A stretch of DNA of 64,000 nucleotides from Oligoflexales bacterium (lineage in GTDB: Bacteria; Bdellovibrionota_B; Oligoflexia; Oligoflexales; JALZUQ01). Below the pieces are notes generated by a model. The model was not told where the DNA came from. It did not search any database and worked only from the letters and a program-made list of their open reading frames with translations. Each line of letters opens with the position of its first letter. The stretch's first letter is position 1. Shown here piece after piece: positions 5,396 through 24,852 of the stretch. The position numbers and the translations under genes were made by a program. The stretch is taken from the NCBI GenBank assembly GCA_023301565.1, contig JALZUO010000008.1, positions 37,045 to 101,044 of the forward strand, read 5' to 3'.

Positions 5396-5398
5396 AGA

Positions 5399-6115: not shown

Positions 6116-6181
6116 TTTTTTGGAAAAAAAATGTAATTCATCACACCATATTAAGTGCCGCGCTGTGGACTGCTTTTTAGG

Positions 6182-7591: not shown

Positions 7592-7705
7592 ACTCCTTAT
7601 AGAACCACTGCAAGTGGTCTATTATAGCAAAGTTCTGTTAAGGGTTACCTTAGATGGTGAGCATGAAGAGCTTGGGGTAAAGGGGGCTGTGTGAATCCTA
7701 ATCAC

Positions 7706-8644
7706 TTAGTTGCTACTAGAAAAGCGAATACGGATTTGGGTTCCTATAAACGGCCTGCAAGGCTCCGGAAGAGGCGCGCTTGCAACGAGCGCACTTTCGA
7801 CGATTTGGTCAAAATAATCGTCTTCAGAGGTCTTCTCCATGGCTATTTTTTCAATAGATAAGTCTTGAGCTGGTGTGATCAGGTAGTCCACTGTTATTCG
7901 GTCGCCAAACTTATATTTCACAGGAAGCTGCTCGTCGATCATAGGCTTCACAAACTGTTTGATGAACTTAGTGCAAGGATCTTTTGCCTCTTCTCGTTGC
8001 ACGGCTAGCTGCTCTTGTTTGAGTTTTAACGCTTCTTCATCAATTTTATTTTGTTTGTCACTTTGAACCTTTAACTCTTTGGATTTTTTAACATCAGTAG
8101 ACTTACGCAGCTTCTCTAGAGCAAGCCTTTTTTTTAGTTCAGCTTTTTCAAGGGCGTTAGCCTCGAGGTCTTCTTTGGCGATAGGTTTTACGTCTTTTTT
8201 CTTTGCTTTTTTCTTTTCTTCCTTTTTTTCTGCATTCTTTTTGCTGTCTTTAGCTTTTTCTTTGGATTTTTCTTTCATCTTAATTTTCTTGGCAAGCTGC
8301 GGGAGCATGTTGCTCGGTATCGTAGCCTCTTTTGCAGTTTTTTGCTTTTTTATGGCGATCACTTTTTTAGGCTTTTCTTTGTCTGGTAGCGGATCGATCA
8401 AAAAATCACCCAAGTCTACATCTACTGCCTCAAAGCGTTTGACATCTATTTTGTGTATCTCTGGCTTACCATAAAAGACAAGTATATGAGCCAGGGTACT
8501 AACAACCAAAAAGCCAATCAGAAGTCTGTTTTCTTTGCGCCTACCCAGAGATGTATTCCGGACGCGTTCGGATCTTTTTTCAGCAAACCCGGCAGGTTTT
8601 TTATGTGCGTCTTTAGACGCTGTTACTTTGGGTGATTTTGTCAT
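7706..8644 (-). CDS. tolA: TolA-like (TonB-family) envelope-spanning protein
   Basis: It has an N-terminal TM anchor (LLIGFLVVSTLAHILVF), a long Lys/Glu/Ala-rich helical linker (KEKSKEKAKDSKKNAEKKEEKKKAKKK) and a small C-terminal globular domain. Its start overlaps the tolR stop by 4 nt. Confidence 0.75.
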   Translation of the reverse strand: MTKSPKVTASKDAHKKPAGFAEKRSERVRNTSLGRRKENRLLIGFLVVSTLAHILVFYGKPEIHKIDVKRFEAVDVDLGDFLIDPLPDKEKPKKVIAIKKQKTAKEATIPSNMLPQLAKKIKMKEKSKEKAKDSKKNAEKKEEKKKAKKKDVKPIAKEDLEANALEKAELKKRLALEKLRKSTDVKKSKELKVQSDKQNKIDEEALKLKQEQLAVQREEAKDPCTKFIKQFVKPMIDEQLPVKYKFGDRITVDYLITPAQDLSIEKIAMEKTSEDDYFDQIVESALVASAPLPEPCRPFIGTQIRIRFSSSN

Positions 8645-9069
8645 TTTCTAGACGTAGCCCGTTCTTCTGAAAGCATGCTGATGCGCTCTGCACCCGCAAG
8701 CTTTGCAGCAGACATCGCATGCATAACCTTTCCGTAGCTAACGCTGCGGTCTGCCCTGATATATAAAGTCTTGTCCGTATTTAGACTCAAAATCCCTTTA
8801 AGCTTTGCTTCTAGCTGTTCTGAGGTCACGCCAACTTTTTCGATGAAGTAGCTGCCGGTGTCGTCCAAGCTAAGTACTATGCGTTTTTTAGAAACCTTCA
8901 TTTGATGTTTAGCCGTTTTAGGAAGATCTACGGAAACTCCGCTCATAGAAAGCGGGGCGGTTACCATAAAAATGATAAGTAGAACCAGCATGATGTCTAC
9001 CAGAGGTACAATATTAATCTCTGCAAGGAAAGTATCTTCATCTCCTGACGTTCCCATTCCAAATGACAT
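8641..9069 (-). CDS. tolR: Biopolymer transport protein TolR (ExbD/TolR family)
   Basis: It shows the ExbD/TolR signature N-terminus (EINIVPLVDIMLVLLIIFMV), is 142 aa long, and lies between tolQ and tolA. Confidence 0.88.
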   Translation of the reverse strand: MSFGMGTSGDEDTFLAEINIVPLVDIMLVLLIIFMVTAPLSMSGVSVDLPKTAKHQMKVSKKRIVLSLDDTGSYFIEKVGVTSEQLEAKLKGILSLNTDKTLYIRADRSVSYGKVMHAMSAAKLAGAERISMLSEERATSRK

Positions 9070-9126
9070 AATGGATCCTTTGATTAAAAATTAAAAGCTT
9101 CATACACAGGGTTTGACCCTGTTGGT

Positions 9127-9909
9127 TTATTCTAGCTCGGTCGTATCACTAACCAGGTAGCCTTCTACAATGTTCAAAAAATCCGCGCTAAAGTTATCAA
9201 GATTAGTCATCAACTGGCGAATCATCGTTGAAAAAATATTGAAGCCAATTGCTGCTGGGATAGCAGCAGCAAGGCCGAAGGCAGTTGCGATTAGTGCTTC
9301 TGAAATCCCAGGAGCAACGGCTGCAAGGCTTGCACTGCCAGATTCGGCAATTCCCTGAAAAGCAGTCATAATCCCCCAAACAGTGCCAAAAAGGCCAATA
9401 AAAGGAGCTGCGGAGGCGCAAATTGCAAGTATAGAAAGGTGGCGCTCCATAGCTCTACGCTCTGCCATTCTTGCCTTGCGAAGGGTTCTGCCCATGTTTC
9501 CCATGACAGCCTTGGTAGCGAGCTCTTCGTTGTTTGAGGTTTGGCGAAGCCTAGAGCCTCTTACCAGTTCACTGTAGCCACTGCGAAAAATTTCCTTGGC
9601 TGGGCTTTCGGCAAATTCTTTTAGCCCTGTGTTCAAATCGTTGAGTGAGTGGGAGTCCCAAAACTTGTCTATGAACTGATCGGACTCTAGGGTGAGTTTT
9701 CGCAAAAAGATGTACTTCGCAAAAAGAATCGCCCAACAGACAAGAGAGGCAAGCACTAGAACGATTAAAACCATGGAGACAACAAAACCGCTCTCTGAAA
9801 TCCTATCCCACAAACCAACTGAAGAGCTTGCAGCTAAAGCCGTTGCTGAAAATGGCCCAGAAAAAAAGGCAAAAATAAATAGTAAAGGAGCTGGTTTAAA
9901 AGCTTTCAA
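9127..9909 (-). CDS. tolQ: MotA/TolQ/ExbB proton-channel protein TolQ
   Basis: It has a conserved C-terminal core (LSILAICASAAPFIGLFGTVWGIMTAFQGI...AVAPGISEALIATAFGLAAAIPA). It is first in the tolQRAB order and carries an N-terminal signal-like extension. Confidence 0.88.
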   Translation of the reverse strand: MKAFKPAPLLFIFAFFSGPFSATALAASSSVGLWDRISESGFVVSMVLIVLVLASLVCWAILFAKYIFLRKLTLESDQFIDKFWDSHSLNDLNTGLKEFAESPAKEIFRSGYSELVRGSRLRQTSNNEELATKAVMGNMGRTLRKARMAERRAMERHLSILAICASAAPFIGLFGTVWGIMTAFQGIAESGSASLAAVAPGISEALIATAFGLAAAIPAAIGFNIFSTMIRQLMTNLDNFSADFLNIVEGYLVSDTTELE

Positions 9910-10058
9910 GGTGTCTCCAATCGCATCGTTTCAGGCGTATCACACGCTCCACTATACCCTTTTTTACAACAATGTGTTTTGAATTTTAAAATATTGATGC
10001 CGTCAGAAAGCTGTACTTAAACGATTAAAGTGCTAAAATTCTCGTAAGTACCAAGTTA
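9910..10058. promoter_or_regulatory. Divergent intergenic control region between tolQRAB and the lipoprotein operon
   Basis: This is a 149-bp AT-rich spacer between two head-to-head operons. It contains a TAAAAT -10-like hexamer at about 10034-10039, but no -35 can be assigned confidently. Confidence 0.35.
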
Positions 10059-10085
10059 GTGAAAACCCGTTTGCGGAGCCATCCT

Positions 10086-11837
10086 ATGAAGTTAGCTTTA
10101 ACCTTGAGTTTGTTGCTTGTCGCCGTAGCTTGCCGGCCACGCGCATCCGGCCTTAGTGAAGGAGGGGCAAACATAGAGAGTCTGTCAGGTGCGGAAGTTC
10201 GCTTTGTTTGTGATTTAGGTTTGCCGATTGCTTTTGGCGAGTTGAGAACAGACTACCGAGAAAAGAGTAGGCATATATTCTCTGTTCTCCCTATTAAAAA
10301 AAATGCTGCTAAAGAGCAGGAGCTTTTTGGCGTTAGCCCCAACAGTAAGGACTGTGGTTTTGGTATTCCAGAAAAACCCGTAAGTGCAGGTACTACTACG
10401 GCTGGTGTGACTGATTTTAGTTATGGGATTACAATTGGTGGGCGGATAAAACCAAAAGAAAAACCTGGTACACAAAAATCTAGTTCAAATATTATTCGAG
10501 CCTTTGAGCCCGCAAACCTTCCGCTTAAAACCGCCTATAAGCCGCTATCAGGTCTTGGGTTGCCGGCGAACTTGCCGTCCGGCCTGGGTTACAAAGTGGC
10601 AGGGCATACAAGCTTTCAAAGAGAGAGTATTGCGCTTTGGAATCAGTACGAAATAATTTGGAATCAAAAAAGGTTTAGCTCTCATGCTCCTATCGTGGAG
10701 GTTGAAGTCGTAGGTGGTTCTCTGCTTTTTTCGACAGGATCTCCTCCGACTCTTTACAGCATGAGGTATAACACTCATAAGGAGTTAAAGGGCAGTGGGC
10801 CGTTTGATTTAATCGCTAACGCCAAAAAGATCACAGGTGAAGTAAGGCGAAACAACGTTCGCATGCATGATTATAAAAACTTTACCTATGATTACTCAGA
10901 CGAGGTTGTTTACTTATCAAATCGAAACCTGCTTCTATATGACAAACTTACACACATAAATGGGAACCAAGACCCAAACCAAAAGTTTCCTCAAGGTGGT
11001 TATTTACGTAGCTTTGAAGTGGAGCAGTATGCGCAGGATAAATCCCTGTTTTTTACAATTAACACTCAAGATAAAATAGAAAAATCTAAGGGCAAGGTTT
11101 TTTGCACACCCATGCTTAATGATGGAGATATTATTTCATCCATGGACGTGATGAGGTTTAAGCATGGAAAGATGTGCTTGAATGTTTTAGGTGTAGGCTA
11201 TAGGCCAGAGGGGAGTAGCACTACTTTGTTTCGGCTGTTGTGGCAAAATCCCTATAAATATTATGGCACCGAACCTTGTGTCATATTGCCTTACCCCAAA
11301 AAAAATCCTCTGTATTGCTTAGAAGAGTTTAGAGGGAAGGGGTCAGAAAATGCATTTGTCGATCTTAGGGGGGTTTCTAAGGTTAGGTTTGCCCCGACGC
11401 AGCGCCATCAAAATTACAAAACACTGAGGATGCAGTTTGCTACTGTTGGTGAAGCTCCTAGCCGCATGGCAGCTGGTATCGAAAGCATGGATCTTCGTAT
11501 TAATGTTCACCGAAAAATTTTTTCGGACGTAAGCCAGCATATGAACACTCTCCTTTGGAGGGGGCCGTTTGTGGACAAAACAATTCATGTTGATTCTTTG
11601 ATTATCCGTAATGTAGGGCTAGATCAGCTAAAAGAGGTTGATATCTGGTGGTCTTCACCCAACATCCTTAATGTAAAGCTTCCTGATAACTCCATTTACA
11701 GTTGGGATGACAGGAATGTTTTGGAAGCGATTAGAGCCAAAAGTATAAATTCGAGTAAAGGGGACGCCAATTGCTCGAGCTGTGGTTTTCCACAAGGGGA
11801 GTTACAAGAAATGCTTCAACAAGAGGTGCCTAAATGA
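10086..11837 (+). CDS. Hypothetical Cys-rich lipoprotein (operon gene 1 of 5)
   Basis: ATG 10086 is preceded by GGAG (10075-10078); an alternative GTG lies at 10059. The lipobox reads LLLVAVAC|RPR. There are 9 Cys, including a C-terminal CSSCG, and no recognisable family motif. Confidence 0.7.
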   Translation: MKLALTLSLLLVAVACRPRASGLSEGGANIESLSGAEVRFVCDLGLPIAFGELRTDYREKSRHIFSVLPIKKNAAKEQELFGVSPNSKDCGFGIPEKPVSAGTTTAGVTDFSYGITIGGRIKPKEKPGTQKSSSNIIRAFEPANLPLKTAYKPLSGLGLPANLPSGLGYKVAGHTSFQRESIALWNQYEIIWNQKRFSSHAPIVEVEVVGGSLLFSTGSPPTLYSMRYNTHKELKGSGPFDLIANAKKITGEVRRNNVRMHDYKNFTYDYSDEVVYLSNRNLLLYDKLTHINGNQDPNQKFPQGGYLRSFEVEQYAQDKSLFFTINTQDKIEKSKGKVFCTPMLNDGDIISSMDVMRFKHGKMCLNVLGVGYRPEGSSTTLFRLLWQNPYKYYGTEPCVILPYPKKNPLYCLEEFRGKGSENAFVDLRGVSKVRFAPTQRHQNYKTLRMQFATVGEAPSRMAAGIESMDLRINVHRKIFSDVSQHMNTLLWRGPFVDKTIHVDSLIIRNVGLDQLKEVDIWWSSPNILNVKLPDNSIYSWDDRNVLEAIRAKSINSSKGDANCSSCGFPQGELQEMLQQEVPK

Positions 11838-13972
11838 GGTTGACAGTGATAAGAAATCTGCCGCTACTAGTGATAGCAGCTGTGCTTTTGGCTACGGCGT
11901 GTAAACAAAGAAGCCGCTTGAGCTCAGATCAACTTGAAAATGAAGCCCGGTATGACGCGCCGTATAGCGAAGAGCTCTTTACTGTCTATCCATTTGCATA
12001 TAATGAACACTTTTTGATGAACATCGCAGATACTAGTACTTGGCTGCACTATGTTTTAGGCGACAGGCAAGATTTAGCTCAAAGAGAAGATTTTCAGGAA
12101 GTTTTTGGTGCTTTGGGAGAAAGCAGGGGGCTGTGGGACAACGGAAGAGAACAGTTTCGGTTTTTGATGCGTAGTGGAGCAAATGCCCTGCAAGAAGTTG
12201 TAGCTTACGACTTCTATATAAAGTTTAAGTACAGCGGGCCGGACGAACGCTCTAAATTTTTGTTTCAATACCCGCTGCATTACAGGCTTCTCCCGCAATA
12301 CGCCCCGAATGCTTCGCGTTTTTTTCAGGTTTTGATTTCCGCAGGTTATTACAACCAAACGAGAGATAAGTTAAGTGCGCAGAAGTGTATTCGAAAGACT
12401 GCAAACCAGTTTGCGCTTGGCGAAATGAACTTTAGCCCAACTGCTCGACCTCCTGAACTAGACTGCTACAAAACAGACCCGCAATGTTGCCTTGTGCCAG
12501 AAGTTAACGAAAAAGGTATACCTCAGCCGCTCCCGCTAAACATGAACAAACTCCCCCTAAAAAGCTGGGGTTTAGACCATGCAACAGAAGAGGTCCCTTT
12601 CCACCTTTTTCGAGCTACCCTTTCGACCTCTACCAGAGAGCTAGACTGGCGTACCCCCTTTCAAATGCAGTGCAGGTTTCAAGATCGGTTCGACGTACCA
12701 CTTAAAGAAGTTTCTGTAGGCGCACCATCTTCTTTTCGCCAGCTGGAAAGCAACCTGACAGCAAAAGAGAAAAAGCGTGAACGTCAAAAAGAAATCATTC
12801 AAGAACAAATTAATGGCATCAAAAAACAGATGGTAGACGTAGAAAAAAGCAGAAAAAAGCCAAACGAAGAGGGTGCAGAAGTTCATAATGCAAATATAGA
12901 AAAATTTATAAAGGAGTCTCGGGTTAGGTTGCTCCGGCTTGAAAGGTTTCTTGAAGCAGATTCAGCAGAAGAGCTTCTGGCAATACAAAGAGAAGAGGCA
13001 TTTGAAGAAGGTAAAGGGGTAAAACCGGTCCACTCTGCTGATTCTCCAAACCCTGGTTCCATCTGTTCAAAAAACCAAGGTTCAAACGTTTGGCCAGAGA
13101 AAATATGTGGTGGGTCTCCCGCACTTGTTGGTTTTGGTGGGCTTCAGAAGGAAACCCGTGTTGTCACTATGCCAACACACGACTACGTCACTCCGGACCT
13201 ATCAAGGCTAAAAAATGAAAGGTATTTTCTTAAGGCATTGGATTTGATGCTACCAACCGACATGTCCATGTCAGCCGGGAGTATTCCGGCAAAGCATTTT
13301 AGTCAGATTCGCGTTTTATTCGAAGGTGAACATAACAGCGGGGCCCAAAATCAGGGTGGGGGTACTGGACAAGAAGGTGGCCAGTCAGTCGGTGCGGCCC
13401 CTGCAGAGTCGGATGTTTTGAACAAGGACGGGCGTTACCGTATGTCTGGAAGCGAGCATATCTCCTTTCTTGGCGCGGAAAGAGTGGAAGAAATAAAAGG
13501 TTTTGTAGACCAAAAGCTTCAGTTAGAGGCAAAAGCAAAACAACAAAGCCAGCAAGCGGCAAAGTCTAAAGCACCGGCTAAAAAAACAAGCTTTATGATA
13601 GAAGAACTAAAAAAACAGGCACAAGAGCGTGTGCGTGACCAAGAACGAATGCGGCTTGCTGTTCGGCCCGACGGGTTTGTCATCAACCCCTACGAAAACG
13701 AAGCTGAGTATTTTTGCAATTTCTCCCAGTACCCTCCAGCTCCTTTTGCACGGTTTCAAGGTTTGGTCGGAGCTTCGAATAATATCAGCAAGGGCCACAT
13801 CCTAGAAGCTTTAGCCAAAGCACTAGCTGCGACAAGTCTAGATCCAGCAAGTAGCAATATTTTAAGCATTGAAAAAATTGACTGGCTTCGTAGGCCTCCT
13901 TGCACAAACGGAGTATGCACTGGTGAAGTTCTATATAGTTTGATGCCAACATTTAACCCAGAAAGAAAATAA
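11834..13972 (+). CDS. Hypothetical Cys-rich lipoprotein with central coiled-coil/Lys-Glu-rich segment (operon gene 2 of 5)
   Basis: An ATGA start/stop overlap links it to gene 1. The lipobox reads VLLATAC|KQR. It has a charged helical stretch (KEKKRERQKEIIQEQINGIKKQMVDVEKSRKK), a Gly/Gln low-complexity patch and paired Cys (DPQCCL, CTNGVC). Confidence 0.7.
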   Translation: MRLTVIRNLPLLVIAAVLLATACKQRSRLSSDQLENEARYDAPYSEELFTVYPFAYNEHFLMNIADTSTWLHYVLGDRQDLAQREDFQEVFGALGESRGLWDNGREQFRFLMRSGANALQEVVAYDFYIKFKYSGPDERSKFLFQYPLHYRLLPQYAPNASRFFQVLISAGYYNQTRDKLSAQKCIRKTANQFALGEMNFSPTARPPELDCYKTDPQCCLVPEVNEKGIPQPLPLNMNKLPLKSWGLDHATEEVPFHLFRATLSTSTRELDWRTPFQMQCRFQDRFDVPLKEVSVGAPSSFRQLESNLTAKEKKRERQKEIIQEQINGIKKQMVDVEKSRKKPNEEGAEVHNANIEKFIKESRVRLLRLERFLEADSAEELLAIQREEAFEEGKGVKPVHSADSPNPGSICSKNQGSNVWPEKICGGSPALVGFGGLQKETRVVTMPTHDYVTPDLSRLKNERYFLKALDLMLPTDMSMSAGSIPAKHFSQIRVLFEGEHNSGAQNQGGGTGQEGGQSVGAAPAESDVLNKDGRYRMSGSEHISFLGAERVEEIKGFVDQKLQLEAKAKQQSQQAAKSKAPAKKTSFMIEELKKQAQERVRDQERMRLAVRPDGFVINPYENEAEYFCNFSQYPPAPFARFQGLVGASNNISKGHILEALAKALAATSLDPASSNILSIEKIDWLRRPPCTNGVCTGEVLYSLMPTFNPERK

Positions 13973-16900
13973 ATGAGCTACTTAAAACTAAGAGTTAAGC
14001 GTTGGGTAATTGCGGTTTTTGTCGTTTCTTGCATAACGCAGTCCTGCAAGCCTAGGTATAGTTATTTGCAAGGCGAGGATTCACGTTTGAGTGGATTCGT
14101 GAAACGACAAGCAGATATATCGCTTATATATAAAGCGTTTCGCACGGCTCCTCATATTTTTGTACCCCCACCTTCGATTGCTCAGCAAAGAGATAAAAAC
14201 AACAAGTTCCTAAAAGTCTATCAGTCGTTTTTAGAGGCAAACCCCGAGGCGCAAGGGGACTACGAAGCTGAAAACCAGCTCCGTAGGCAGATTGAAGAGA
14301 AGTTCGGGACAGCGAGGACGCCGGTTGAAGAAATTTTTGATTACTCTTTTGACGAAGGTTATCCGGAGCTACGCTCTTATGCAGCTGCAACTGCTTTTGA
14401 GCTTTTGATTCGCAGTGATCCTACGGCTACGCATATAGGTTTTCAAAACAAAGACTACACACCGAGTCAGTTCTTAAATGTTTTACTTGGTCAGGTAATC
14501 AAGCCTTGGAATCCTAGGATCAAAGAAGTCCGTCAGGACGGAGATCAAAAAGGTAAAAAGCCAGGCGGAGACCTTATATGTGGCTACCCTTGGGAGTGCC
14601 TAAAAAAAGTAGAACATTTGGTAAGTCTCTCGCATGTTCTTAATGCAAGGCATCACAAGCTTAGTGAAAGCATAAAGCTAATTTTTGATGAGCTAGCTAG
14701 AATTGCTCTGCTTCCTTCAGAATCTGGCTCTGAGTTTGACAGGGCCGATCAAGTCAGCGTTATGAATGCGCTTGTTTTTTACCAAGCAAAACTGGGAAAA
14801 GCTTATGCAGAGTTTGCGACGCAGACGGGTTATTTTTTGGGTACCCCTATCAATTTTTCCTCTCTTTACTTCAGTCAAATTAAAAAAGGTAGGCAAAACT
14901 TTGCGATTAAAGAAAAAAGGAAGGTACTGGAAATAGTTCGTAATATGGAGAAAAGATTCTTTACTACGTTCTCCTACCGCGGCACAAAGTACATTACCCC
15001 TTATGAGGTTGATATCAATAGGTTTCGAAGAGAGATGCTTATGGAAATGGCTCATTCGGACCCTAGATTTGCTGATTTAGCCGACGACTCCTACTTTTTG
15101 AACCTTGCGTCTGTCGATGGAAAAACAAAGGTTGTTTCTGATATTGACGTGATCGAAAAACAGCGTAAAGACGAATCTCAATTTCTTGACGAAGCTATGA
15201 TGATGCTCAACTCGAACCTGAAGATGGTTGGCAGTGTTATACGGAACACGGGTAAAAGTTCGCGGCGAATTCTGATGCTTTTGGACCGCATGCAGCAAAA
15301 GTCTCCTAGAAGGCATATTGCTTGTAGTGTTGAGCTGAGTCGTGACTATTACCGGCAGGTATCAGAAAGATACATCATTCCAGGGGTGCAAGGAAAGTCC
15401 GCCCCCAAAATTCTAGCCCCTTTGGAAATTGGCTTTTCTAAGACCGTGACACACGGCAATGGTAGCTATACCTGTCTCAATAGGCCACTTCTGCCAGCCC
15501 AAGGCATCAAAAGTTTAATGCCTAATGAAGATGCGGTTCGTCGAGAGGCGTATGGGCCGTTCCGCTTAAAATATAAAACTGCTTTGCAAACCCTTGTTGG
15601 GTTAGATGCGAACCTGATACGCATAGCCCCAGACAACAAAGGCAAGAGCCGGAATTTTTCGCCTTATGCAGGGCTAGTGAAGGTTTTTGATGTCCTTGCC
15701 TCTAGCGCCTTCGATACGAATCGAAGTTTAGCTGTGGATTTGGGTTTAGATCCAGCCGTTCTCGGGCAACAGTACGAACAGCGTCTTTATGAGAGTATGC
15801 GTGGTTTTACTGGCTGGAGTGACACCTTGCTCAAAATGGCAAATGAGATGCAGCATCGAGACAGAAACACCAAGCTTTGGATGAGTTTACTCGAGCAAGA
15901 TGTCGAGTTCTTAAAAGAAGATGGCGCGATGCCCAAGGACGAAAAACTGGCACAAATGTTTGATTCTGAGTGGGAATACGCAGTGTTTAAAGGCCAGGCT
16001 AAAGGAGAGTATGAAAGGTGGGTTCAGGAAAAAGGAGGCGCGGTATCTGGTGGTGCGGTTTGGTCTTCTTATACCAAGCTTTATAGGGCGATGGTCGGAA
16101 CCACCAACGAAGAAGACAAGAAGGTCTTTAAAAGTATTGAAGATAAAAGGCGAAATATCGCTGAAGGGCACCGTTTTCCCAAAGAAGCCGATACTCCTAA
16201 GGAGAGAGAAGATATTAGAGCTTCTCTTCTGCAGGAAACCTGGGCTTTAACTGGTGGAACTGCCAAGAAAATTTGGACTTATATGTTTAACGGTCATGGC
16301 ACAAAAAACGCTTGGCAACACAACCTAGATAGGGAAACAGCTCTATCCTTAAAGCCCAAGCTGCAAATGGCGTGCTTAGAATATCGCGCGCTTGCAGGCA
16401 CGCCACAACAAAAACAATACTTCTATTCACAATCGGAACAGCAAAAGTGGAATCAGGAATCTAGTTTTTCGAAAAACTTTTTGGGGTGTCAGTCGTACGC
16501 TCTAAACTGGAGTATTCCCTCCATGTACAATGATATCCAAAAGTTTGACTACGGCAAGAAGTTGCTTACTAATTTGGCTAGCGATGATTTAAGCCCATTT
16601 TCACATGAGGGCTATGAACGAGCCAAAGATGGAAAGTTTGATCTTAGGGTGATGTGTGGAGAAACAACCAAAGCATATGATGAGGTAATGTCCTTGGACC
16701 TGCACCTAGATCAGATGCTCATCGCCCACAATAAAGATTCGCGCTGCAGAGGGTCCACTAACCAGATAGTCACGACTGTAATTTCTCTGTCAGTTATGGG
16801 GCCTCTTTTTAAGGTTGCTGGTTCAGTCTCAGGTTTTTTAACGCCTAACTTAGGTCGGATACCATTGATGGGTCCTTTGATGACGCCTATGATCAATACC

Positions 16901-18529
16901 GTAACCAAGAGATACCGAACAATGGTCAGTCACCTGGTTCGGGGAAAAAAACTTAGTATCAAAGGAGCAGAGGGCTGGTATAACCTCAATCCGTTTTCTA
17001 GCCGTAATCTTCGCGGGGTGTTGGACGACACTGCAACAGCTGTTTTTAATGTGACAACTAGGGGCAAAACCCGTGGCCAGTTTGCTGCTGCGTGGAAAAG
17101 GTTAGGTACGATGCCTTTTTGGGCTGTTTTGCATGTTTGCGCCACCCGCGGCTCCTATGCTGCAATCAACGGGGCGATTACGGGTACGGTTTTTTTCTTA
17201 GTAAATAAAGTCGTGATGGCACCCTTGGTCGGGGGCTTGATCCAGCAGTTGCCAGGAGAAACCGTCATGGGTGCTATTTGGCGGACCAAGTGGAGTCTTG
17301 CGATAGAGTATGGTCAAGGTGTGAGTTATGCCATGCTCGGTCCGATTGGTGATGGTCCGGCTATTTGGACGAATAAAATGGGCCTTGGAATGGCTTATCG
17401 CGGTATTCAGTGGGGGCGTGGGTTTGTCAGAAGACGTGCCCCGGGTTTACCTAAATACATACCGTTTAAGGATTTCAGATCTAGGTTTTATAACTATTCA
17501 AAAGGACTTGCAGGAACAAGTCAGATTGCGCTGGAAGAAGCTTGGTTTTTTATTCCCGATATTGCCATTATGGAGACTTTTTACTTTTTACAGTGGTGGG
17601 ATACCGGAGAGCCGGCGGTCCGAGAAACCTTTGGCGCCTTCGTGACGCAAAATGCCTTTGCTCTTTATATGATTCGCGGAAAGCAAGCGCGAGCTCTTGG
17701 GGCGCAAGCTATATGGGAAACAAAGATAGAAGTGTCGGCTATCAAGTCATTTAGAGAGCTGCGCAAATTTGCCAACACAAGGAGAACCATTAGGGTTGCA
17801 GGTAGCGAGCTCAACTTTGGGCAAGGGAACGTACGTGACTTGCTTGCAGATGTCGGAATTTTACATTCGGGCGATATTAGCTTTGATGAGTTTTACCGGC
17901 TAGTTCGACGCGGCGTGGACAGAACAGAGCGCTATATGGATCAGCGGACGTTAGATGAGTTTTACCAGCAGATTGAGCAAATGAGTGATGGTATTGAAGC
18001 AGAGCGAGCCGTGACAGAGTGGACTCACATGACTCACCTGCGAAACGTGGCACTACAAATAGATGCCATCACAAGAGACAAGGAAACCTTTCGCCGCAAT
18101 ATCTGGCCGGAATACATCCAAGCTAGAAGGACCCAAGGGGTCCGGGCTGTAAATAACTATGCTCAGGCCTTTGCTGCAGCAGACGGTAAGCTTGTCTCGG
18201 CCGAGGTAGACCTTAGTGCGGATCCGTTGAAGGCTATATTTGGCAAGGGGCGCGAGGTGTTCTTTACCTCTTCTATGAATAACCCGCAGATTAAAGAGCA
18301 GCTTGAAAAAATGCGAGATGAACTCGAACACCGGAAACAAAAAGCTCAAAGTACAGGTAACAGTAATCTTGAAAAGCATATAGATGATGCATTGGCGTTA
18401 TATATGGATCCTTTTCATAGCCGAAACCAGATTCAACTAGCTAGAGGCTTACAGCCTTTTGGGGTCCGGCGAATGCATGAGCAGCGCACAGCGCAGGTTC
18501 GGTCATGGCAGCCATTTGATGAGTTTTAG
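13973..18529 (+). CDS. Hypothetical 1518-aa envelope protein: N-terminal signal/lipobox, ~900-aa soluble region, hydrophobic multi-helix block, ~330-aa C-terminal domain (operon gene 3 of 5)
   Basis: The ATG immediately follows the gene 2 TAA. The N-terminus reads WVIAVFVVSCITQSC. Hydrophobic segments fall at roughly aa 915-1200 (VTTVISLSVMGPLFKVAGSV, FWAVLHVCATRGSYAAINGAITGTVFFLV, AWFFIPDIAIMETFYFLQWW). The ORF is intact over 4.5 kb. Confidence 0.75.
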   Translation: MSYLKLRVKRWVIAVFVVSCITQSCKPRYSYLQGEDSRLSGFVKRQADISLIYKAFRTAPHIFVPPPSIAQQRDKNNKFLKVYQSFLEANPEAQGDYEAENQLRRQIEEKFGTARTPVEEIFDYSFDEGYPELRSYAAATAFELLIRSDPTATHIGFQNKDYTPSQFLNVLLGQVIKPWNPRIKEVRQDGDQKGKKPGGDLICGYPWECLKKVEHLVSLSHVLNARHHKLSESIKLIFDELARIALLPSESGSEFDRADQVSVMNALVFYQAKLGKAYAEFATQTGYFLGTPINFSSLYFSQIKKGRQNFAIKEKRKVLEIVRNMEKRFFTTFSYRGTKYITPYEVDINRFRREMLMEMAHSDPRFADLADDSYFLNLASVDGKTKVVSDIDVIEKQRKDESQFLDEAMMMLNSNLKMVGSVIRNTGKSSRRILMLLDRMQQKSPRRHIACSVELSRDYYRQVSERYIIPGVQGKSAPKILAPLEIGFSKTVTHGNGSYTCLNRPLLPAQGIKSLMPNEDAVRREAYGPFRLKYKTALQTLVGLDANLIRIAPDNKGKSRNFSPYAGLVKVFDVLASSAFDTNRSLAVDLGLDPAVLGQQYEQRLYESMRGFTGWSDTLLKMANEMQHRDRNTKLWMSLLEQDVEFLKEDGAMPKDEKLAQMFDSEWEYAVFKGQAKGEYERWVQEKGGAVSGGAVWSSYTKLYRAMVGTTNEEDKKVFKSIEDKRRNIAEGHRFPKEADTPKEREDIRASLLQETWALTGGTAKKIWTYMFNGHGTKNAWQHNLDRETALSLKPKLQMACLEYRALAGTPQQKQYFYSQSEQQKWNQESSFSKNFLGCQSYALNWSIPSMYNDIQKFDYGKKLLTNLASDDLSPFSHEGYERAKDGKFDLRVMCGETTKAYDEVMSLDLHLDQMLIAHNKDSRCRGSTNQIVTTVISLSVMGPLFKVAGSVSGFLTPNLGRIPLMGPLMTPMINTVTKRYRTMVSHLVRGKKLSIKGAEGWYNLNPFSSRNLRGVLDDTATAVFNVTTRGKTRGQFAAAWKRLGTMPFWAVLHVCATRGSYAAINGAITGTVFFLVNKVVMAPLVGGLIQQLPGETVMGAIWRTKWSLAIEYGQGVSYAMLGPIGDGPAIWTNKMGLGMAYRGIQWGRGFVRRRAPGLPKYIPFKDFRSRFYNYSKGLAGTSQIALEEAWFFIPDIAIMETFYFLQWWDTGEPAVRETFGAFVTQNAFALYMIRGKQARALGAQAIWETKIEVSAIKSFRELRKFANTRRTIRVAGSELNFGQGNVRDLLADVGILHSGDISFDEFYRLVRRGVDRTERYMDQRTLDEFYQQIEQMSDGIEAERAVTEWTHMTHLRNVALQIDAITRDKETFRRNIWPEYIQARRTQGVRAVNNYAQAFAAADGKLVSAEVDLSADPLKAIFGKGREVFFTSSMNNPQIKEQLEKMRDELEHRKQKAQSTGNSNLEKHIDDALALYMDPFHSRNQIQLARGLQPFGVRRMHEQRTAQVRSWQPFDEF

Positions 18530-18586
18530 GTTCCTGTTTGGGCGCTCAGTATGGTAAAATCTAAGCACGTTACTCATTTACAAAAT

Positions 18587-18593
18587 AAGGAGG
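18587..18593 (+). promoter_or_regulatory. Shine-Dalgarno site (AAGGAGG) for operon gene 4
   Basis: AAGGAGG lies 7 nt upstream of GTG 18601. Confidence 0.7.
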
Positions 18594-18600
18594 CTTTGCC

Positions 18601-19797
18601 GTGCGAGCAAATATACTTTTAGCTGGATTGATGTTGGTGCTGATGGCCTCATATGGGTGTAGATCTGTAGGTGATAATAGCTCCCTTTTAGGTAAAGGCG
18701 GCATTGGCAACTTGCATGGTTGTGAAATAGTGAACCAGACCTGCGTAGGGAAATGTCCGTACGACCTTCAAAGGACTGCTGCTGATCTTCCAAAACTTCA
18801 CCCGCCTTTACTGGCCGTACTAGGTACCCGTCTTGTATCAGGTAGTAAATCAGACAATGCTGTAAAAACTTTTTTAGAAAAAGCTGGAATTTCTGAGTGG
18901 TCAGATGTTTATAGCAAGAAGTATATAGATGCCTTTAGTGGAAAATCTCCAAACGGAGATGGTGCAGAGGGCTTTAGATTAGCTCTAGCTGAGGATACAA
19001 AAAAGGTATTGGCAGGTATTCCAGCCGACCAACGTGCCGATTTTGTAATGCGAACTGCCACCACTATTGCTGCTTTGATTACAGACGGTCAAACGCACGA
19101 TGTAAAAGGGTTGCTTGCACAAGGGCTTATGGAAGCAGACATAAAAAACTTAGTTTCTGGAATCAATACACCTGAAATGAAAATAGCTTTAAAAACACTT
19201 GAAGCAGCAAAAGAATCCACGAAGCTAGCATTGTCTGGTAATTTTGATGCAATGGATCAAATGCAGCGGATTTTAAAAAGTCTTGGAGATGAAGCAAAGC
19301 GCACTACCTTTGCAGGAGCCAATGGCGATGCTTTCAAAACGACTGCCTATGAAACTGCATCAGTCTTAGCAGCTGATCTAGAGGCTATTGAGCGTGTTCG
19401 GTTGGGTCAGCCAAACCAAATTATGCCTCCTGAAATAGCAAGCTTGGTCGGTGAAAATGGTCATGCTGAAGGCGTTGTACATGCTTCAGCTCTTAAGTTG
19501 TGGTTCAACGGTAAAGCTCCAGGTGCAAACCAACGGGGTGGTGAAATTACACGTGGAGCATCTAATGTAATGGTTGCAACCGGTAAAAATATGGATGCCG
19601 ACGCAAGTTATGCACAGGCTGCAGAGAGACTACCTAGGGGTTTTGGCGCTGCTTTGGTAGATTCCGCAGATGCGACAACTAGGGTAAGAGCTTTAAGTCA
19701 AAGAGCAAAATCAAGGGACATTCTGCAATCGGCCGCTAGAAAAAAATCTGCAGCTGGCACTGCGGCTAGAAATTTTTCTGCGAAGACTGCTCTTTAA
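18601..19797 (+). CDS. Hypothetical lipoprotein, Ala-rich helical (operon gene 4 of 5)
   Basis: It has a GTG start with a strong SD. The lipobox reads LVLMASYGC|RSV. A Cys cluster (CEIVNQTCVGKC) lies near the N-terminus, and there is no recognisable family motif. Confidence 0.7.
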   Translation: MRANILLAGLMLVLMASYGCRSVGDNSSLLGKGGIGNLHGCEIVNQTCVGKCPYDLQRTAADLPKLHPPLLAVLGTRLVSGSKSDNAVKTFLEKAGISEWSDVYSKKYIDAFSGKSPNGDGAEGFRLALAEDTKKVLAGIPADQRADFVMRTATTIAALITDGQTHDVKGLLAQGLMEADIKNLVSGINTPEMKIALKTLEAAKESTKLALSGNFDAMDQMQRILKSLGDEAKRTTFAGANGDAFKTTAYETASVLAADLEAIERVRLGQPNQIMPPEIASLVGENGHAEGVVHASALKLWFNGKAPGANQRGGEITRGASNVMVATGKNMDADASYAQAAERLPRGFGAALVDSADATTRVRALSQRAKSRDILQSAARKKSAAGTAARNFSAKTAL

Positions 19798-19800
19798 GGT

Positions 19801-21363
19801 ATGAATCATAAAAATGTGAAGAGTCTGTTTTTTTTATTCTTCGCCTTTGTATTGGTAGGCTGCAAATCTCCAAATAGCAATATTTTGGGTGGTTCGCAGC
19901 CTTCTGATTTTACGGTAAACCCTTTTAAGCTGCGGCAAGCGGACACAAACTCACTTCACAGTTTTTCTATCCCAAAAAAGATCTTGGCCATTGGAACTCG
20001 GTTGAGTGATCTTAGTTTTTACCGTCTCGGTCGGGATGACCAGTCCCTTTCTATGTCTATTTTTGATAGCCAGCCAACTTTAGCTCCACCGCCCACAAAC
20101 CCTGATTTTGGGAAGCTTTTGAGGAAGGCTCAAAAGCCAGGAGCTCGCGTAGATGCGCTCATAACTTCCTTGGACTTTAGTCATGACGGAAACGTGTTGG
20201 CTGTTGGTACAGAGTCTGGCGTACATTTGTACGAGTTTTTATATGATCAAAACGGCGAAATTCTAGATATTTGCGAAGAGAGTGTCGATAACTTTCTGCC
20301 TGGTCAACCGATAGAATCGGTCCGTTTTACTGGTCACGACCTAAAAGCAAAAAAGTTGCTTTATAGGCTGGTTTCACAAACGAAACCAGGCATTTTGCAT
20401 ATCTCGGTAATTTTACCTAGGGTAGCGCGAAACGAAGATGGCAGTACTATCCCCGCTAAAGTGTGTTCAGCTCGTGCGGGCAGTGGAAACCTAGCAGACG
20501 ATGCTACCTATATTCATACAGTGCCAATGCTAAAATTGCTGCCTGCAATCGGCCAAACTGAATTACATGCAAAAAACTGGATTGGACTACAGTTTAACTC
20601 AGTTGGTAAATATATAAATGAAGCTTTTAATTATCCGTCTAAAATGCTTCGAGTAGAAGGGCCTTTTATAGAGACTAAAAAATCTATTCTGAGCCCCTAT
20701 ATAGCAGGCTACTCAATGCAATATGTTTATTTGATTAGATTCGCAGATGGCACAACACGGTATCTCTATGAAGCTCCAAACCACAAAGCTCTGCAAGGTT
20801 GGAACCTGGTCTACGACAAGTCCAAGCCACATATTAAAGAGGTATATTCATTTAGCTCGAATAAAACTCGAATGATGCTCAGTTACTTGGGTAATAGGGT
20901 ATTTGTAAGTGAATTTAGTTCTTATGGTGAAGAGTACTTTTATGATGCGACCAAGGTTAATATTGGCGAAGAAAAAGCAAACGAGCTTTACAATACTATT
21001 TACACGAGCAAGCAAAAGGCCTTGATGCGCCGGGTTAAAAAATTAGGTGTACGTTTTTTTACACCCAGTAATTCCAAGTTTTGGGTGACTTCGTCTTATC
21101 CAGACAGAACCAAAAACCTTTTTTGGTTGTTTTCGCCAAAACACAATATAATCACGGTTTATTTGACTCCATGGCACCTGCACCCAATTCAAGAGGGCTC
21201 AAAGAATAACCGGGTTTTGTTTTCAAAAGACCCAGCTCTTAGAGGTTGGATTCCAGATACAGAGCAGGTTTGGCCAATAGACCACGAACGGCTTCTTTCA
21301 CGTCACCCTGATGGAACGCTTTACTGCCTTGACTTTAAGAAGGCTAGCTGTGGACCGCTTTAG
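19801..21363 (+). CDS. Hypothetical lipoprotein, possible beta-propeller-like (operon gene 5 of 5)
   Basis: It starts 3 nt after the gene 4 stop. The lipobox reads FAFVLVGC|KSP. One WD40-like strand motif is present (DFSHDGNVLAVGTESGVHLYEF); otherwise there are no family motifs. Confidence 0.7.
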   Translation: MNHKNVKSLFFLFFAFVLVGCKSPNSNILGGSQPSDFTVNPFKLRQADTNSLHSFSIPKKILAIGTRLSDLSFYRLGRDDQSLSMSIFDSQPTLAPPPTNPDFGKLLRKAQKPGARVDALITSLDFSHDGNVLAVGTESGVHLYEFLYDQNGEILDICEESVDNFLPGQPIESVRFTGHDLKAKKLLYRLVSQTKPGILHISVILPRVARNEDGSTIPAKVCSARAGSGNLADDATYIHTVPMLKLLPAIGQTELHAKNWIGLQFNSVGKYINEAFNYPSKMLRVEGPFIETKKSILSPYIAGYSMQYVYLIRFADGTTRYLYEAPNHKALQGWNLVYDKSKPHIKEVYSFSSNKTRMMLSYLGNRVFVSEFSSYGEEYFYDATKVNIGEEKANELYNTIYTSKQKALMRRVKKLGVRFFTPSNSKFWVTSSYPDRTKNLFWLFSPKHNIITVYLTPWHLHPIQEGSKNNRVLFSKDPALRGWIPDTEQVWPIDHERLLSRHPDGTLYCLDFKKASCGPL

Positions 21364-21463: not shown

Positions 21464-22465
21464 ATGCAATTTTTTTCCGTTCTATGTCTTACTGTTCTTT
21501 TTGTTTTGCCTAGCGCATTTTTAAGCTCAGCTTCTGCCGAGCCCCTCTACCGCATCAAAGGAAAAACCGTTACAGGAGTGACGCTTAACCCTGTAAAGCA
21601 GTCAGTCTTTAATCAGCTAAAGGTTAATTACTACGAGGCTAAACTTAGGTTTGCCAAAGATCAGGTTCTAGAAGCTTACTACGACAAACTTGCTGCCAAA
21701 GAAGGTAAAACAAGGCTAGAGGTTGAAAAAGAGCTTTTGCATGTAAAAAAACTTAACCAAGAAGAACTCAAAGAGTTTTATAACAATAATAAAGAAAATA
21801 TCCCTTACCCTTACTTTTTAGTCAAAGATAAGCTGGCGGATTACTACAAAGGGTTTGCCAAAGAAGATCTTCGAGAAAAGGTTTTTAAAAAAGCCAGAAA
21901 AAGCCTAAACGCTAAGATTTTGTTACCTAAGCCCGTTGCCGGGACAATAGCTATCGACACTTCTTTGTACGCAAAAAAAAGCTCTGACAAGGCCAGGCAC
22001 ACATTGATTAAGGTGGGTGACTATCAATGTCCATACTGTAAATCGGCACATAAACTGCTGCCAGGCATTTTAGAAAAGCTCGGTAAAAAGGTTGAGTTTG
22101 TCTATGTGGACTTCTTCAACCCATCCTCAAGAGGCGGTAAGGCCGTAGCAGAGGTCGCCTACTGTATTCGAAAACATAAAAGTGACTCCGCATATTGGGC
22201 TTACCATGACCACGCCTATAAAAATCAAATGATGATGTTTTCTACCTCTGCCGGCAGGCGTTTTGCTGAAGAGACTAAAAACTGGGATACAAAAGTTGAA
22301 AAGTGCTACACAAGCAAGGAGGGCACAAAGTTTGTAAATGCATCGCATGAATTTGCAAAAGATTTGGGAGTGACAGAAACCCCCACCTTTTTTCTCGATG
22401 GGAAAAAGATGAAGCTACCAGCGACTGAAAAGCTTGCGGTCAAAAAAATCCGCAAGCTTATGTGA
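21464..22465 (+). CDS. DsbA-family thiol:disulfide oxidoreductase with N-terminal helical extension
   Basis: It has a signal peptide and the thioredoxin-fold active site GDYQCPYCKSAH (CPYC). The C-terminal TPTFFLDGKK is typical of DsbA-like proteins. Confidence 0.8.
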   Translation: MQFFSVLCLTVLFVLPSAFLSSASAEPLYRIKGKTVTGVTLNPVKQSVFNQLKVNYYEAKLRFAKDQVLEAYYDKLAAKEGKTRLEVEKELLHVKKLNQEELKEFYNNNKENIPYPYFLVKDKLADYYKGFAKEDLREKVFKKARKSLNAKILLPKPVAGTIAIDTSLYAKKSSDKARHTLIKVGDYQCPYCKSAHKLLPGILEKLGKKVEFVYVDFFNPSSRGGKAVAEVAYCIRKHKSDSAYWAYHDHAYKNQMMMFSTSAGRRFAEETKNWDTKVEKCYTSKEGTKFVNASHEFAKDLGVTETPTFFLDGKKMKLPATEKLAVKKIRKLM

Positions 22466-23266: not shown

Positions 23267-24325
23267 GTGAATGCTCCGAATGTTAAAACAGCCCCAAAAA
23301 CCAGCCTTGTATGGCTCTACGTACTTGCTTGGGTATTTTCCTCTTCTCTATATAGCCAAGCCGGTGGCCACCAAATCCCGGTAAATAAATCAAAAATCCC
23401 GGCCCTCAAAGATGTTCCTTACGAGCTAGGTTGGCCAGTCCGTTCTGTCAAAAAACCTAGGCACACTAGAAAAAACAAAACGATGGACCACACGGCCAAG
23501 CCTAGAGCAAAGGGTGCATTCCAGACCAGTAATCCACACCAAAAACTTGGTTTCTCTGTTGGTTTTGCAGGGGCTGGAAGTGCTGCAGATTCAGATACTA
23601 GCTCGACCCATCACGCCTCAGGTTTTGCCCCATCGAATTTAAGCCGAAGTGTGCTAACCACGCGAGGGCCTGTTAGCCCAGGTGAATTCACCTCTTCGCA
23701 GCTAGACTCTGCGCAGCCTTCTGATAGCTTGATCTTACAAGCCAAAGATAAATCAAAACTTCATGCAGAAGCTCACTATAGTTTTAGAGCTACAAAGCTG
23801 GGAAACTCTAGATTAATCGACGGAGTTTGGATCCAAACCGGTCTTGGCTGGCAGCAAAATCGCGAAGACTTTTCACAGTCCATCGAGGAAACGAATACCC
23901 TAAACTTTCGCAGCCAGGGCCCACGTGCATCACTAGCTGTGTTTGTTCCTTTTACAATGGGAAGTTTCAGTCTGAACCCAGGCATGGGGGTTTCTTTGTC
24001 GAGGCTTCAACATAGCGCAGCACTATTTGTTTCCGAAGGCGACGCTAGCTTTAGCTCTGAGGCAGATGCCAAAGCTAGCTGGAGCCAAGAGTATCGCCCG
24101 GAGCTCACAGCGGCTTACCAAATTGGCCGCGTGCAAATAGAAGCTTCCGTCGGTTATTCCATCTCTTCTGAGAGCCAAAAGTCGGTATCCTTTGATTCAG
24201 CCTCGCAGACTGCCGGAGCTGGAACCCCTCTGGTTAGCGTCGAAAACCAAGGTTTAGATTGGACTATTGAAAAGCAGAAAAACCGCTCTTTGCAGTGGGG
24301 AGTTGGTTTAAAGATAGGTCTTTAA
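23267..24325 (+). CDS. Secreted protein with C-terminal beta-barrel-like region (hypothetical OMP)
   Basis: It has a GTG start with AAAGAGG upstream and a signal peptide (LYVLAWVFSSSLYSQA). The C-terminal half has alternating Ser/Gly/aromatic segments, and the gene is followed by a clean terminator. Confidence 0.65.
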   Translation: MNAPNVKTAPKTSLVWLYVLAWVFSSSLYSQAGGHQIPVNKSKIPALKDVPYELGWPVRSVKKPRHTRKNKTMDHTAKPRAKGAFQTSNPHQKLGFSVGFAGAGSAADSDTSSTHHASGFAPSNLSRSVLTTRGPVSPGEFTSSQLDSAQPSDSLILQAKDKSKLHAEAHYSFRATKLGNSRLIDGVWIQTGLGWQQNREDFSQSIEETNTLNFRSQGPRASLAVFVPFTMGSFSLNPGMGVSLSRLQHSAALFVSEGDASFSSEADAKASWSQEYRPELTAAYQIGRVQIEASVGYSISSESQKSVSFDSASQTAGAGTPLVSVENQGLDWTIEKQKNRSLQWGVGLKIGL

Positions 24326-24372: not shown

Positions 24373-24852
24373 TCAGATTTTTTTTGGCTTCCCGACTTTT
24401 TTGACCAGAGCAAAGTGCTCTTTTTCAACTGGTTGAATGCTAAGCCTTTGGCCGCGCTTACACACGAGCATATTGGATAGCTCAGGGTGTTCTTTAAGCT
24501 CAGCAAGACTGATGAAGCTGCCAAGTTCGTGCGTAGCCTGCACGTCGACCATAAACCAACGAGGATTTTCTTTGCTGGATTTTGGGTCGTAGTATTTATT
24601 GCGTTTATCCCAAGAAAAATGGTCTGGGTAACCTTCTTTGACAATGGTCCCAACGCCTGCAATCCCAGCCGGGTTTGCGTTGGAATGATAGATGAGCACC
24701 CCGTCACCGACTTTGAAGTCGTCGCGCATAAAGTTTCTGGCCTGGTAGTTACGAACACCTTCCCAGTGCGTGGTCTGTCCTTTTGCTTTCGCAAAGTCTT
24801 GGATAGACCACGTGCTGGGTTCGGTTTTCATAAGCCAATAACGTTTTGCCAT
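24373..24852 (-). CDS. EVE (PUA-like) domain protein
   Basis: MAKRYWLMKTEPSTWSIQDF...WEGVRNYQARNFMRDDFKVGDGVLIYHSN matches the EVE-domain N-terminal consensus. It lies 24 nt downstream of gltA. Confidence 0.85.
   Translation of the reverse strand: MAKRYWLMKTEPSTWSIQDFAKAKGQTTHWEGVRNYQARNFMRDDFKVGDGVLIYHSNANPAGIAGVGTIVKEGYPDHFSWDKRNKYYDPKSSKENPRWFMVDVQATHELGSFISLAELKEHPELSNMLVCKRGQRLSIQPVEKEHFALVKKVGKPKKI

Follow-up and report, generated by a model that had tools for sequence, protein, structure and literature searches.

The window analyzed here, a stretch of 64,000 nucleotides from an Oligoflexales bacterium (contig JALZUO010000008.1, positions 37,045 to 101,044), contains a cassette of five consecutive open reading frames (ORFs), named A to E, all of them on the plus strand and together spanning 10059-21363. 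We conclude that this cassette is a real, rare envelope module: its gene order recurs in other organisms, each of its products begins with an export signal that ends in Cys and is followed by a short basic tag, and none of its subunits appears to belong to any described family. We tentatively prefer to read it as an undescribed complex in which co-sorted, disulfide-stabilised lipoproteins are arranged around the product of gene C; the complex would probably be located at the inner membrane, and its role would be structural or one of binding. An undescribed envelope system had already been proposed in an earlier note on this DNA, and the conserved synteny and the shared tag reported below strengthen that reading; the observations of the note stood, excepting its description of the products as Cys-rich and as simple lipoproteins throughout, and its proposal held at the sequence level, its argument from the Tol and DsbA neighbours being the weak part.

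Organization of the cassette

The coordinates of the five ORFs and all four of their junctions were exactly those given in the earlier note. Genes A and B share a 4-nucleotide (nt) ATGA overlap, B and C abut with 0 nt between them, C and D are separated by 71 nt and D and E by 3 nt; the C-D spacer carries AAGGAGG ahead of the GTG start of D. Gene C as a whole covers 13973-18529 and encodes 1518 amino acids (aa). These features support A to E as one compact, co-oriented, partly translationally coupled unit, and in that form the single coupled unit claimed before was upheld. The G+C content and skew of the operon are the same as those of its flanks.

The likely start of gene A is the ATG at 10086, which is preceded by GGAG at a distance of 7 nt; a separate gene call on the source contig, a 226-kb scaffold from a metagenome assembly (ENA ERZ23499574), likewise arrives at 583 aa. 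The gap to tolQ is 176 bp from this better-supported start, and the 149 bp previously claimed holds for the GTG at 10059. Within this interval TGCTAAAAT would be a candidate promoter element for the cassette: the tolQ/cassette intergenic lengths differ between the window (149/176 bp) and a related locus described below, L002 (about 150-390 bp), and the -10-like element is kept in both. A further sigma-70-like site lies in front of the cassette at 9963-9992. No RNA genes were found in the window (Rfam and tRNA scans), nor any paralogues of the cassette proteins elsewhere in it.

The five-gene order recurs in other organisms

A word-indexed search of 5.8 billion proteins returned only C itself when C was the query, and A itself plus one further protein, P0003, when A was used; the same kind of search with a profile of four C homologues returned C alone, missing the known relatives. 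When aa 1-1200 of C were compared in full by HMMER with 1.84 billion representatives at 50% identity, two distant relatives only were obtained, P0004 (E-value 1.7e-25) and P0005 (E-value 5e-5). Scans of 185,579 GTDB species genomes with alignments of C and of TolQ detected no relative of C and no close relative of TolQ, and no further cassette relatives came from JGI metagenome contigs (two scans), viral contigs (one scan) or plasmids (tblastn).

Four loci could be compared, namely the window, the contig of P0003 from a JGI sample (L002), the contig of P0004 (L003) and the locus of P0005 (contigs L004/L005, hereafter L005), the last coming from the same sample as the window. Since their G+C content spans 36-46% (window ~44%, L002 46%, L003 42%, L005 36%), the four loci represent four different organisms.

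Conservation of gene order had been suggested as a check on the proposed system, and the order does recur. In both L003 and L005 five consecutive same-strand genes are found around the C homologue, in the order A-B-C-D-E, with products of 641/466/1277/358/560 aa and 492/714/1485/412/682 aa, respectively, compared with 583/712/1518/398/520 aa in the window. In L002 the genes tolB-tolA-tolR-tolQ are divergent from A'-B'-C', which reach the end of the contig and display the same 4-nt overlap and 0-nt junction. Genes A and B, and likewise B and C, overlap or lie close together at three of the four loci (the A-B gap of L005 is ~380 nt), and a C-D spacer of 65-79 nt is present in all three complete loci (window 18530-18600, L003:13835-13913, L005:14459-14523), the other junctions of the window being 3 nt or less. 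No conserved sequence or RNA fold was detected in this spacer (z-scores +1.6, -1.1 and -0.7).

The flanks of the cassette differ in L003 and L005, and on this basis the conserved unit is A-E: tol and dsbA adjoin the cassette in neither locus, and in L005 unrelated genes flank it on both sides.

Some particularities of the individual loci may be mentioned here. The L003 cassette is immediately preceded (L003:1973-5956) by a TnpB-like gene (Cas12f1-like_TNB), by an insertion sequence (IS) that contains an rve integrase, and by genes for a resolvase and a nucleotidyltransferase, which suggests that this copy lies in a variable or mobile region. After the L005 cassette (L005:17897-21418) the next gene overlaps by 4 nt and encodes 195 aa; behind it lie LemA and two DUF3137 genes, and the other loci have none of these genes. 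The A homologue of L002 is split over two frames (L002:8471-10010): ORF 8471-8779 encodes a signal peptide, a WAC-KAR tag (the hyphen follows the Cys) and an N-terminus like that of A in the window, and the remainder (8607/8748-10010) lies in the other frame; this split reflects either a genuine frameshift, and thus a pseudogene, or a mistake made when an old metagenome was assembled.

A shared basic tag follows a lipobox-like cysteine

The N-termini of 18 proteins were compared, comprising the five of the window and 13 counterparts, among them the N-terminal fragment of the split A homologue of L002. All 18 begin with a signal peptide made of a basic n-region and a hydrophobic h-region followed by [G/A/S]-Cys, and all 18 have K or R at position +2 after the Cys. 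At +4 an R is found in 15/18, the usual forms being CKPR, CKVR, CKQR, CKTR, CKAR and CRPR; three proteins depart from this, namely D (CRSV) and E (CKSP) of the window and D of L005 (CKTTR). Before the Cys, positions -3/-2 are often non-canonical (TQSC, YGC, LRSC, LHSC), and G/A/S at -1 plus the Cys is invariant (18/18). Among the window proteins, a strict lipobox expression, [LVI][ASTVI][GAS]-C, picked out E and, besides it, just Cys20 of C (VVSC), which is not conserved; the conserved Cys of C is C25 (TQSC). A signal peptide with a lipobox-like Cys had been read in all five products by the earlier note, and all five do end in [G/A/S]-Cys; of the two options that it offered for C, VVSC is to be dropped in favor of TQSC.

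In four lipoprotein-like proteins that these contigs encode outside the cassette, position +2 is T, H, A or N, and the tag is lacking (Table 1). That the tag was kept while the rest of the proteins diverged beyond recognition indicates that selection probably acts on the tag itself.

In Myxococcus xanthus, 8 of 12 inner-membrane lipoproteins carry Lys at +2 (Bhat et al. 2011, PMC3222651), and one +2 Lys signal sequence of this species retains mCherry in the inner membrane (PMC3222651); in Pseudomonas aeruginosa, Lys at +3 and Ser at +4 cause lipoprotein retention (PMC3222651). By analogy with these two species, the tag of the cassette might act as a common Lol-avoidance signal.

Divergence and selection

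When the window was compared with L002, protein identity amounted to 41% for A (aa 169-546, P0003), 50% for B and 56% for C, versus 83% for TolQ, 85% for TolR, 82% for TolB and 63% for TolA; because of this difference, the cassette would be evolving roughly three times faster than Tol. For B, the nonsynonymous proportion of differences (pN) was 0.33 and the synonymous one (pS) 0.80, the latter saturated, which suggests that the cassette is under purifying selection, as shown for this gene. The homologous locus with its three levels of identity, together with the excess of pS over pN in B, leads us to regard the cassette genes as real on sequence grounds.

C alone is significantly similar across the distant loci: BLASTP of its C-terminal core against them gave 3e-31 and 2e-16, and its N-terminal domain gave 4e-15 and 3e-7 when compared through L002. 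In B, a short C-terminal motif, NPFNLAxNxxxDEFxFY in L003 and L005 (hhalign P 8.5e-5 between these two), matches INPYENEAEYFCN of the window, and a WD40-like blade motif of E recurs at the same relative position across loci (hhalign P 5e-3). A and D displayed no significant similarity to their positional counterparts in L003 and L005, and no close homologue of D was recovered. What supports the equivalence of A, B, D and E between distant loci is therefore their place in the gene order, their length and the N-terminal tag that they have in common, not sequence statistics.

Conserved cysteines and anatomy of the proteins

Cys makes up 0.7-1.5% of the five proteins, a level that we consider ordinary, so that their description as Cys-rich was wrong. 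The paired Cys motifs pointed out before fared unevenly: CSSCG in A is not conserved and the two distant D proteins lack the CEIVNQTCVGKC of D, and the Cys of B and C are conserved. The L002 homologue of B retains each of the 10 mature Cys; eight mature Cys of C recur in unchanged order in each of the three full-length homologues, which are only 21-28% identical. In the numbering of the window the C pairs are 203/209, 451/501, 801/839 and 895/925, all of them N-terminal to the hydrophobic core, with essentially none after it, a pattern that fits a putative disulfide-bonded extracytoplasmic N-terminal domain.

The N-terminal part of C is 56% identical to that of L002 and recognisably similar to those of L003 and L005, and the core that follows it (aa ~926-1250) is the best conserved segment of the whole cassette, with the invariant residues RG, N, QG, GP..DG, EEA....D and GE. 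The region aa ~930-1245 is conserved and moderately hydrophobic, reaching Kyte-Doolittle values of 1.6-1.9 in two windows, and because of it C is probably more than a simple lipoprotein, the exception to the claim that all five products are of that kind. As these values are borderline for a transmembrane segment, the core of C is predicted to be membrane-associated or possibly membrane-inserted. The secondary structure of C was modelled for aa 880-1518 only; AlphaFold2 on these C-terminal 639 aa, with a 3-sequence alignment, gave a predicted local distance difference test (pLDDT) score of 36.7, unusable as a structure, and in this low-confidence model the tail is helical.

As for the remaining subunits, in B a central linker rich in K/E and in G/Q lies between an N-terminal domain that holds conserved Cys and the conserved C-terminal motif INPYENEAEYFCN...CTNGVC, and D is Ala-rich with a basic C-terminal tail. 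A looks beta-rich by eye from its sequence and has no match to the propeller repeat models in Pfam. Five beta-propeller Pfam models match aa 116-146 of E, about one WD40/PD40-like blade, with E-values of 0.02-0.2 and below the gathering score; the single-sequence AlphaFold2 model of E is beta-rich, with a pLDDT of 33.7, and likewise unusable.

Searches of known families

Chance-level matches only were obtained for the five window proteins against Pfam, NCBIfam, PADLOC and PHROGs, and for the ten distant counterparts against Pfam and NCBIfam. For these 15 cassette proteins no Pfam or NCBIfam family was found at E <= 0.5-1 beyond chance level, the Bam, Por, Gld, Glt/Agl, Lpt and Mla models included, and sequence and profile searches of A-E against the PDB produced no meaningful match (best E 0.5-1.9). 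The absence of any family signature, first noticed by reading the translations, was thus borne out in Pfam, NCBIfam, PADLOC, PHROGs and the PDB sequences, and no confident match to a hidden Markov model was found. The absence of PADLOC and PHROGs matches and of relatives in viral contigs also bears on membership of an anti-phage or phage system, for which nothing was detected in those sources.

A weak NCBIfam match links aa 995-1081 of C (16955-17215) to the phosphotransferase system (PTS) IID subunit AgaE (E 3.7e-4, 19.8 bits vs a cut-off of 500); it covers one hydrophobic segment of C and is probably compositional. Several more specific identities were rejected. The core of C is not TolQ/ExbB-like (hhalign probability against TolQ, 0.1), A and E are not TolB paralogues (hhalign probability <4, their single blade-like motif not being significant), and a comparison of A with E rejected paralogy between them. 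A J-domain in the C tail, prompted by a match to ActJ in the L005 homologue (E 7e-4), was discarded as well: the tail has no HPD motif and no Pfam DnaJ match, and hhalign against a small J-domain alignment gave a probability <= 3.8. Regarding Tol-Pal, no Pfam or NCBIfam match of the cassette to TolQ, TolR, TolA, TolB, Pal or CpoB was found, and genomic linkage failed too, tol being adjacent in the window and L002 and absent from L003 and L005.

Genomic neighbourhood

The cassette is divergent from a tolQRAB block on the minus strand (6182-9909) and is followed by a DsbA-like gene, here called F, so that both neighbours described in the earlier note were found in the window (Table 1). F combines a thioredoxin/DSBA domain, a CxxC motif and an N-terminal hydrophobic export signal. 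No terminator-like site was found on the plus strand between E and F, and F may be co-transcribed with the cassette. It is nevertheless a neighbour and not a conserved cassette member, because no such gene follows the cassette in L003 or L005, and the DsbA linkage is not kept. The functional meaning attributed to the Tol neighbourhood is weak for a similar reason, since tol adjoins the cassette in the window and in L002, a close relative, but in neither of the other two loci. Both neighbours are specific to the lineage of the window, and the case for Tol and DsbA acting as partners of the cassette is weak.

Table 1. Positions of the cassette genes, of their neighbours and of the lipoprotein-like proteins used for comparison; a hyphen in a residue string follows the lipobox-like Cys.
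Feature	Position	Strand	Description
Gene A	10086..11837	+	583-aa lipoprotein-type precursor, LLVAVAC-RPR; alternative GTG start 10059
Gene B	11834..13972	+	712-aa lipoprotein-type precursor, LLATAC-KQR
Gene C, N-terminal part, aa 1-925	13973..16747	+	signal peptide, lipobox-like Cys25 (TQSC-KPR), large domain with four Cys pairs
Gene C, conserved core, aa ~926-1250	16748..17722	+	Gly-rich, moderately hydrophobic helices
Gene C, C-terminal tail, aa ~1251-1518	17723..18529	+	charged, helical, Cys-free
Gene D	18601..19797	+	398-aa lipoprotein-type precursor, MASYGC-RSV, GTG start
Gene E	19801..21363	+	520-aa lipoprotein-type precursor, VLVGC-KSP
Candidate extended -10 promoter element TGCTAAAAT	10031..10039	+	aligns with TGATAGAAT upstream of the L002 cassette (~8480-8490)
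tolQ	9127-9909	-	MotA_ExbB, 7e-34
tolR	8641-9069	-	ExbD, 2e-32
tolA-like	7706-8644	-	TonB_2
tolB	6182-7591	-	PD40/TolB_N
Neighbour F, DsbA-like	21464-22465	+	Thioredoxin_4 2.3e-19, DSBA 3.7e-8, CPYC aa 189-192
LysM protein, window	4637		FAC-TTS
Lipoprotein-like protein, window	38731		VAC-HPN
Lipoprotein-like protein, L003	6134		FGC-AKE
Lipoprotein-like protein, L005	4785-5804		SAC-NDS

In the window region 4637-7591 the minus strand carries neither pal nor cpoB after tolB; past tolB one comes to genes of the opposite strand, at 5399-6115 (no family) and 4637-5395 (a LysM lipoprotein), and an OmpA-family protein is encoded far from tolB, at 32437-33642. The remainder of the window holds ordinary chromosomal housekeeping genes (citrate synthase, polA, tatC, PPDK and others), with a small EVE-domain protein (PF01878, precomputed annotation) at 24373-24852 on the minus strand, adjoining citrate synthase. 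Seven more sizeable ORFs have no Pfam family at the thresholds used (1090-2277, 2462-3019, 3737-4603, 5399-6115, 23267-24325, 30069-30785 and 37922-38731), which fits a poorly characterised lineage.

Interpretation and alternatives

According to the reading that we favor, although at somewhat less than even confidence, the region would encode a self-contained five-subunit extracytoplasmic complex, all of whose members are predicted to be exported through Sec, cleaved and lipid-modified at the conserved Cys. The Cys-[Lys/Arg]-x-Arg shared by the mature N-termini would be a common sorting signal that brings every subunit to the same membrane face, most likely, by analogy with the +2 Lys of M. 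xanthus, the periplasmic leaflet of the inner membrane through Lol avoidance. C would be the conserved core of the assembly, with a large, probably helical domain held by four disulfides, then a hydrophobic, Gly-rich core in contact with the membrane or inserted in it, and a charged tail after that. The conserved Cys of B and C and the DsbA-like gene next to the cassette count in favor of this reading. The fast-evolving periphery would consist of A and E, both beta-rich and with weak propeller-like motifs, of D, Ala-rich and helical, and of B, in which a long linker, flexible or coiled, connects two globular ends. As no ATPase or other recognisable enzyme is present, the complex would most likely be a structural, scaffolding or binding assembly in the envelope.

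Several points weigh against this interpretation. Both AlphaFold models were uninformative with 1-3 input sequences, and the +2 Lys rule is taken from another phylum. Homology of A, B, D and E with their distant counterparts is not statistically established, except for the short B motif. The hydrophobic segments of C have Hessa-scale sums of +4.6 to +5.8, versus -4.3 to +1.9 for the TolQ/R/A helices of the window, and none of them passes in the L003 homologue, which makes insertion into the membrane uncertain. Finally, fast divergence is equally compatible with surface exposure.

This last point leads to the main rival, which we consider rather unlikely: an outer-membrane or cell-surface lipoprotein complex, for instance an adhesin or a device for contact with prey, host or substrate, in which the tag would be an outer-membrane or surface export signal and the core of C a buried helical core instead of a transmembrane one. 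Such an exposed complex would account for divergence that outpaces the neighbouring Tol proteins, for peripheral subunits that are unrecognisable between lineages and for a narrow, patchy distribution with one copy beside IS, TnpB and resolvase genes, and the C segments are indeed too weak to pass as transmembrane helices. Positional tags just past the Cys also exist in other phyla, an example being the lipoprotein export signal (LES) of Bacteroidota, which lies directly after it; to our knowledge, however, the known surface export tags are acidic, not basic. Against a surface location there is, moreover, the association of +2 Lys with inner-membrane retention in M. xanthus, and of +3 Lys likewise in P. 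aeruginosa (PMC3222651), and the Gly-rich, hydrophobic core of C, where conservation within the cassette is highest, has charged residues that never vary, a combination found more typically in a core embedded in the membrane.

It is less probable still that the cassette is a Tol-Pal accessory module, that is, a set of periplasmic scaffold lipoproteins, functionally similar to CpoB/LpoB/NlpI or AglU, through which the energy of Tol would drive gliding or the remodelling of peptidoglycan or of the outer membrane. Its divergent arrangement with tolQRAB, the short shared intergenic region with the extended -10-like element kept in the window and L002, the lack of pal or cpoB after tolB on that strand and the weak PD40/WD40-like blade motifs in A and E would all agree with this idea; but the tol linkage is missing in L003 and L005, no similarity to the TolQ, TolB, Pal or CpoB families is detectable, and adjacency in two close relatives may be plain inheritance.

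A membrane-inserting toxin or translocon-like system, in which C would contribute a conditionally inserting pore-forming region and the other lipoproteins would serve as delivery or receptor-binding partners, appears very improbable. The C helices, moderately hydrophobic and Gly-rich, are nearer to inserting hairpins than to constitutive transmembrane helices and the accessory subunits evolve fast, as such a system would have it; however, the family searches revealed no similarity to toxin, secretion or immunity families, no secretion-system genes lie nearby, and the predicted lipid anchoring of all subunits speaks against release. Least credible of all is a chance run of lineage-specific hypothetical genes forming no system: orphan ORFs are abundant in poorly sampled lineages and several other ORFs of the window lack a Pfam match, but this reading is largely refuted by conserved synteny, since four loci in different organisms and contexts agree in their gene order, gene sizes, type of junction and N-terminal tag, with purifying selection on the genes.

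Returning to the inner-membrane lipoprotein complex, a bolder version of it is conceivable, to which we give less credence: the cassette would be a previously undescribed five-subunit envelope machine of an uncultured lineage, with a dedicated lipobox-Cys-Lys-x-Arg tag that is either a new Lol-avoidance signal or a novel targeting route, and with C as a new membrane-associated fold. If true, this would represent a complete multi-protein envelope module with no subunit of any described family and with a cassette-specific tag right after the lipidated Cys. Lipoprotein sorting rules are poorly known beyond a few model species, and a clean tag would offer a directly testable handle; the general impact is moderate, because only four loci are known, all from uncultured organisms, and no function can be assigned.

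Comparison with known systems

Inner-membrane-retained lipoproteins of M. xanthus resemble those of the cassette in having Lys right after the Cys, a position occupied by K or R throughout the set compared here. The cassette tag, known here from sequence, differs in being longer (K/R-x-R, counting the Arg at +4 found in most members) and in being confined to one gene cassette instead of marking a general class. DsbA-family oxidoreductases are akin to neighbour F only, through its Thioredoxin_4 and DSBA matches, CPYC motif and signal peptide.

Tol-Pal comprises TolB, Pal and the accessory protein CpoB, and AglU is a WD-repeat gliding lipoprotein of M. xanthus; the cassette shares with them its position beside tolQRAB in two loci, periplasmic or lipoprotein products and possibly, through weak motifs in A and E, a propeller-like element, whereas it has no homology to the Tol, Pal, CpoB or PD40 families above threshold and lacks the linkage in two of the four loci. 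BamBCDE and the PorK/L/M/N proteins (GldK-N) of the type IX secretion system (T9SS) are multi-lipoprotein envelope machines. Like them, the cassette is an operon of several envelope proteins including lipoproteins, with a possibly propeller-like subunit and no ATPase of its own; unlike them, it matches no Pfam or NCBIfam model of the Bam, Por or Gld families, has a different number and size of subunits and carries a lipobox-like Cys on every subunit. By homology the cassette would thus fall outside all of these systems, and it is in organisation that the Bam lipoproteins, PorK-N and the Tol-associated periplasmic proteins CpoB and AglU appear to be its nearest analogues.

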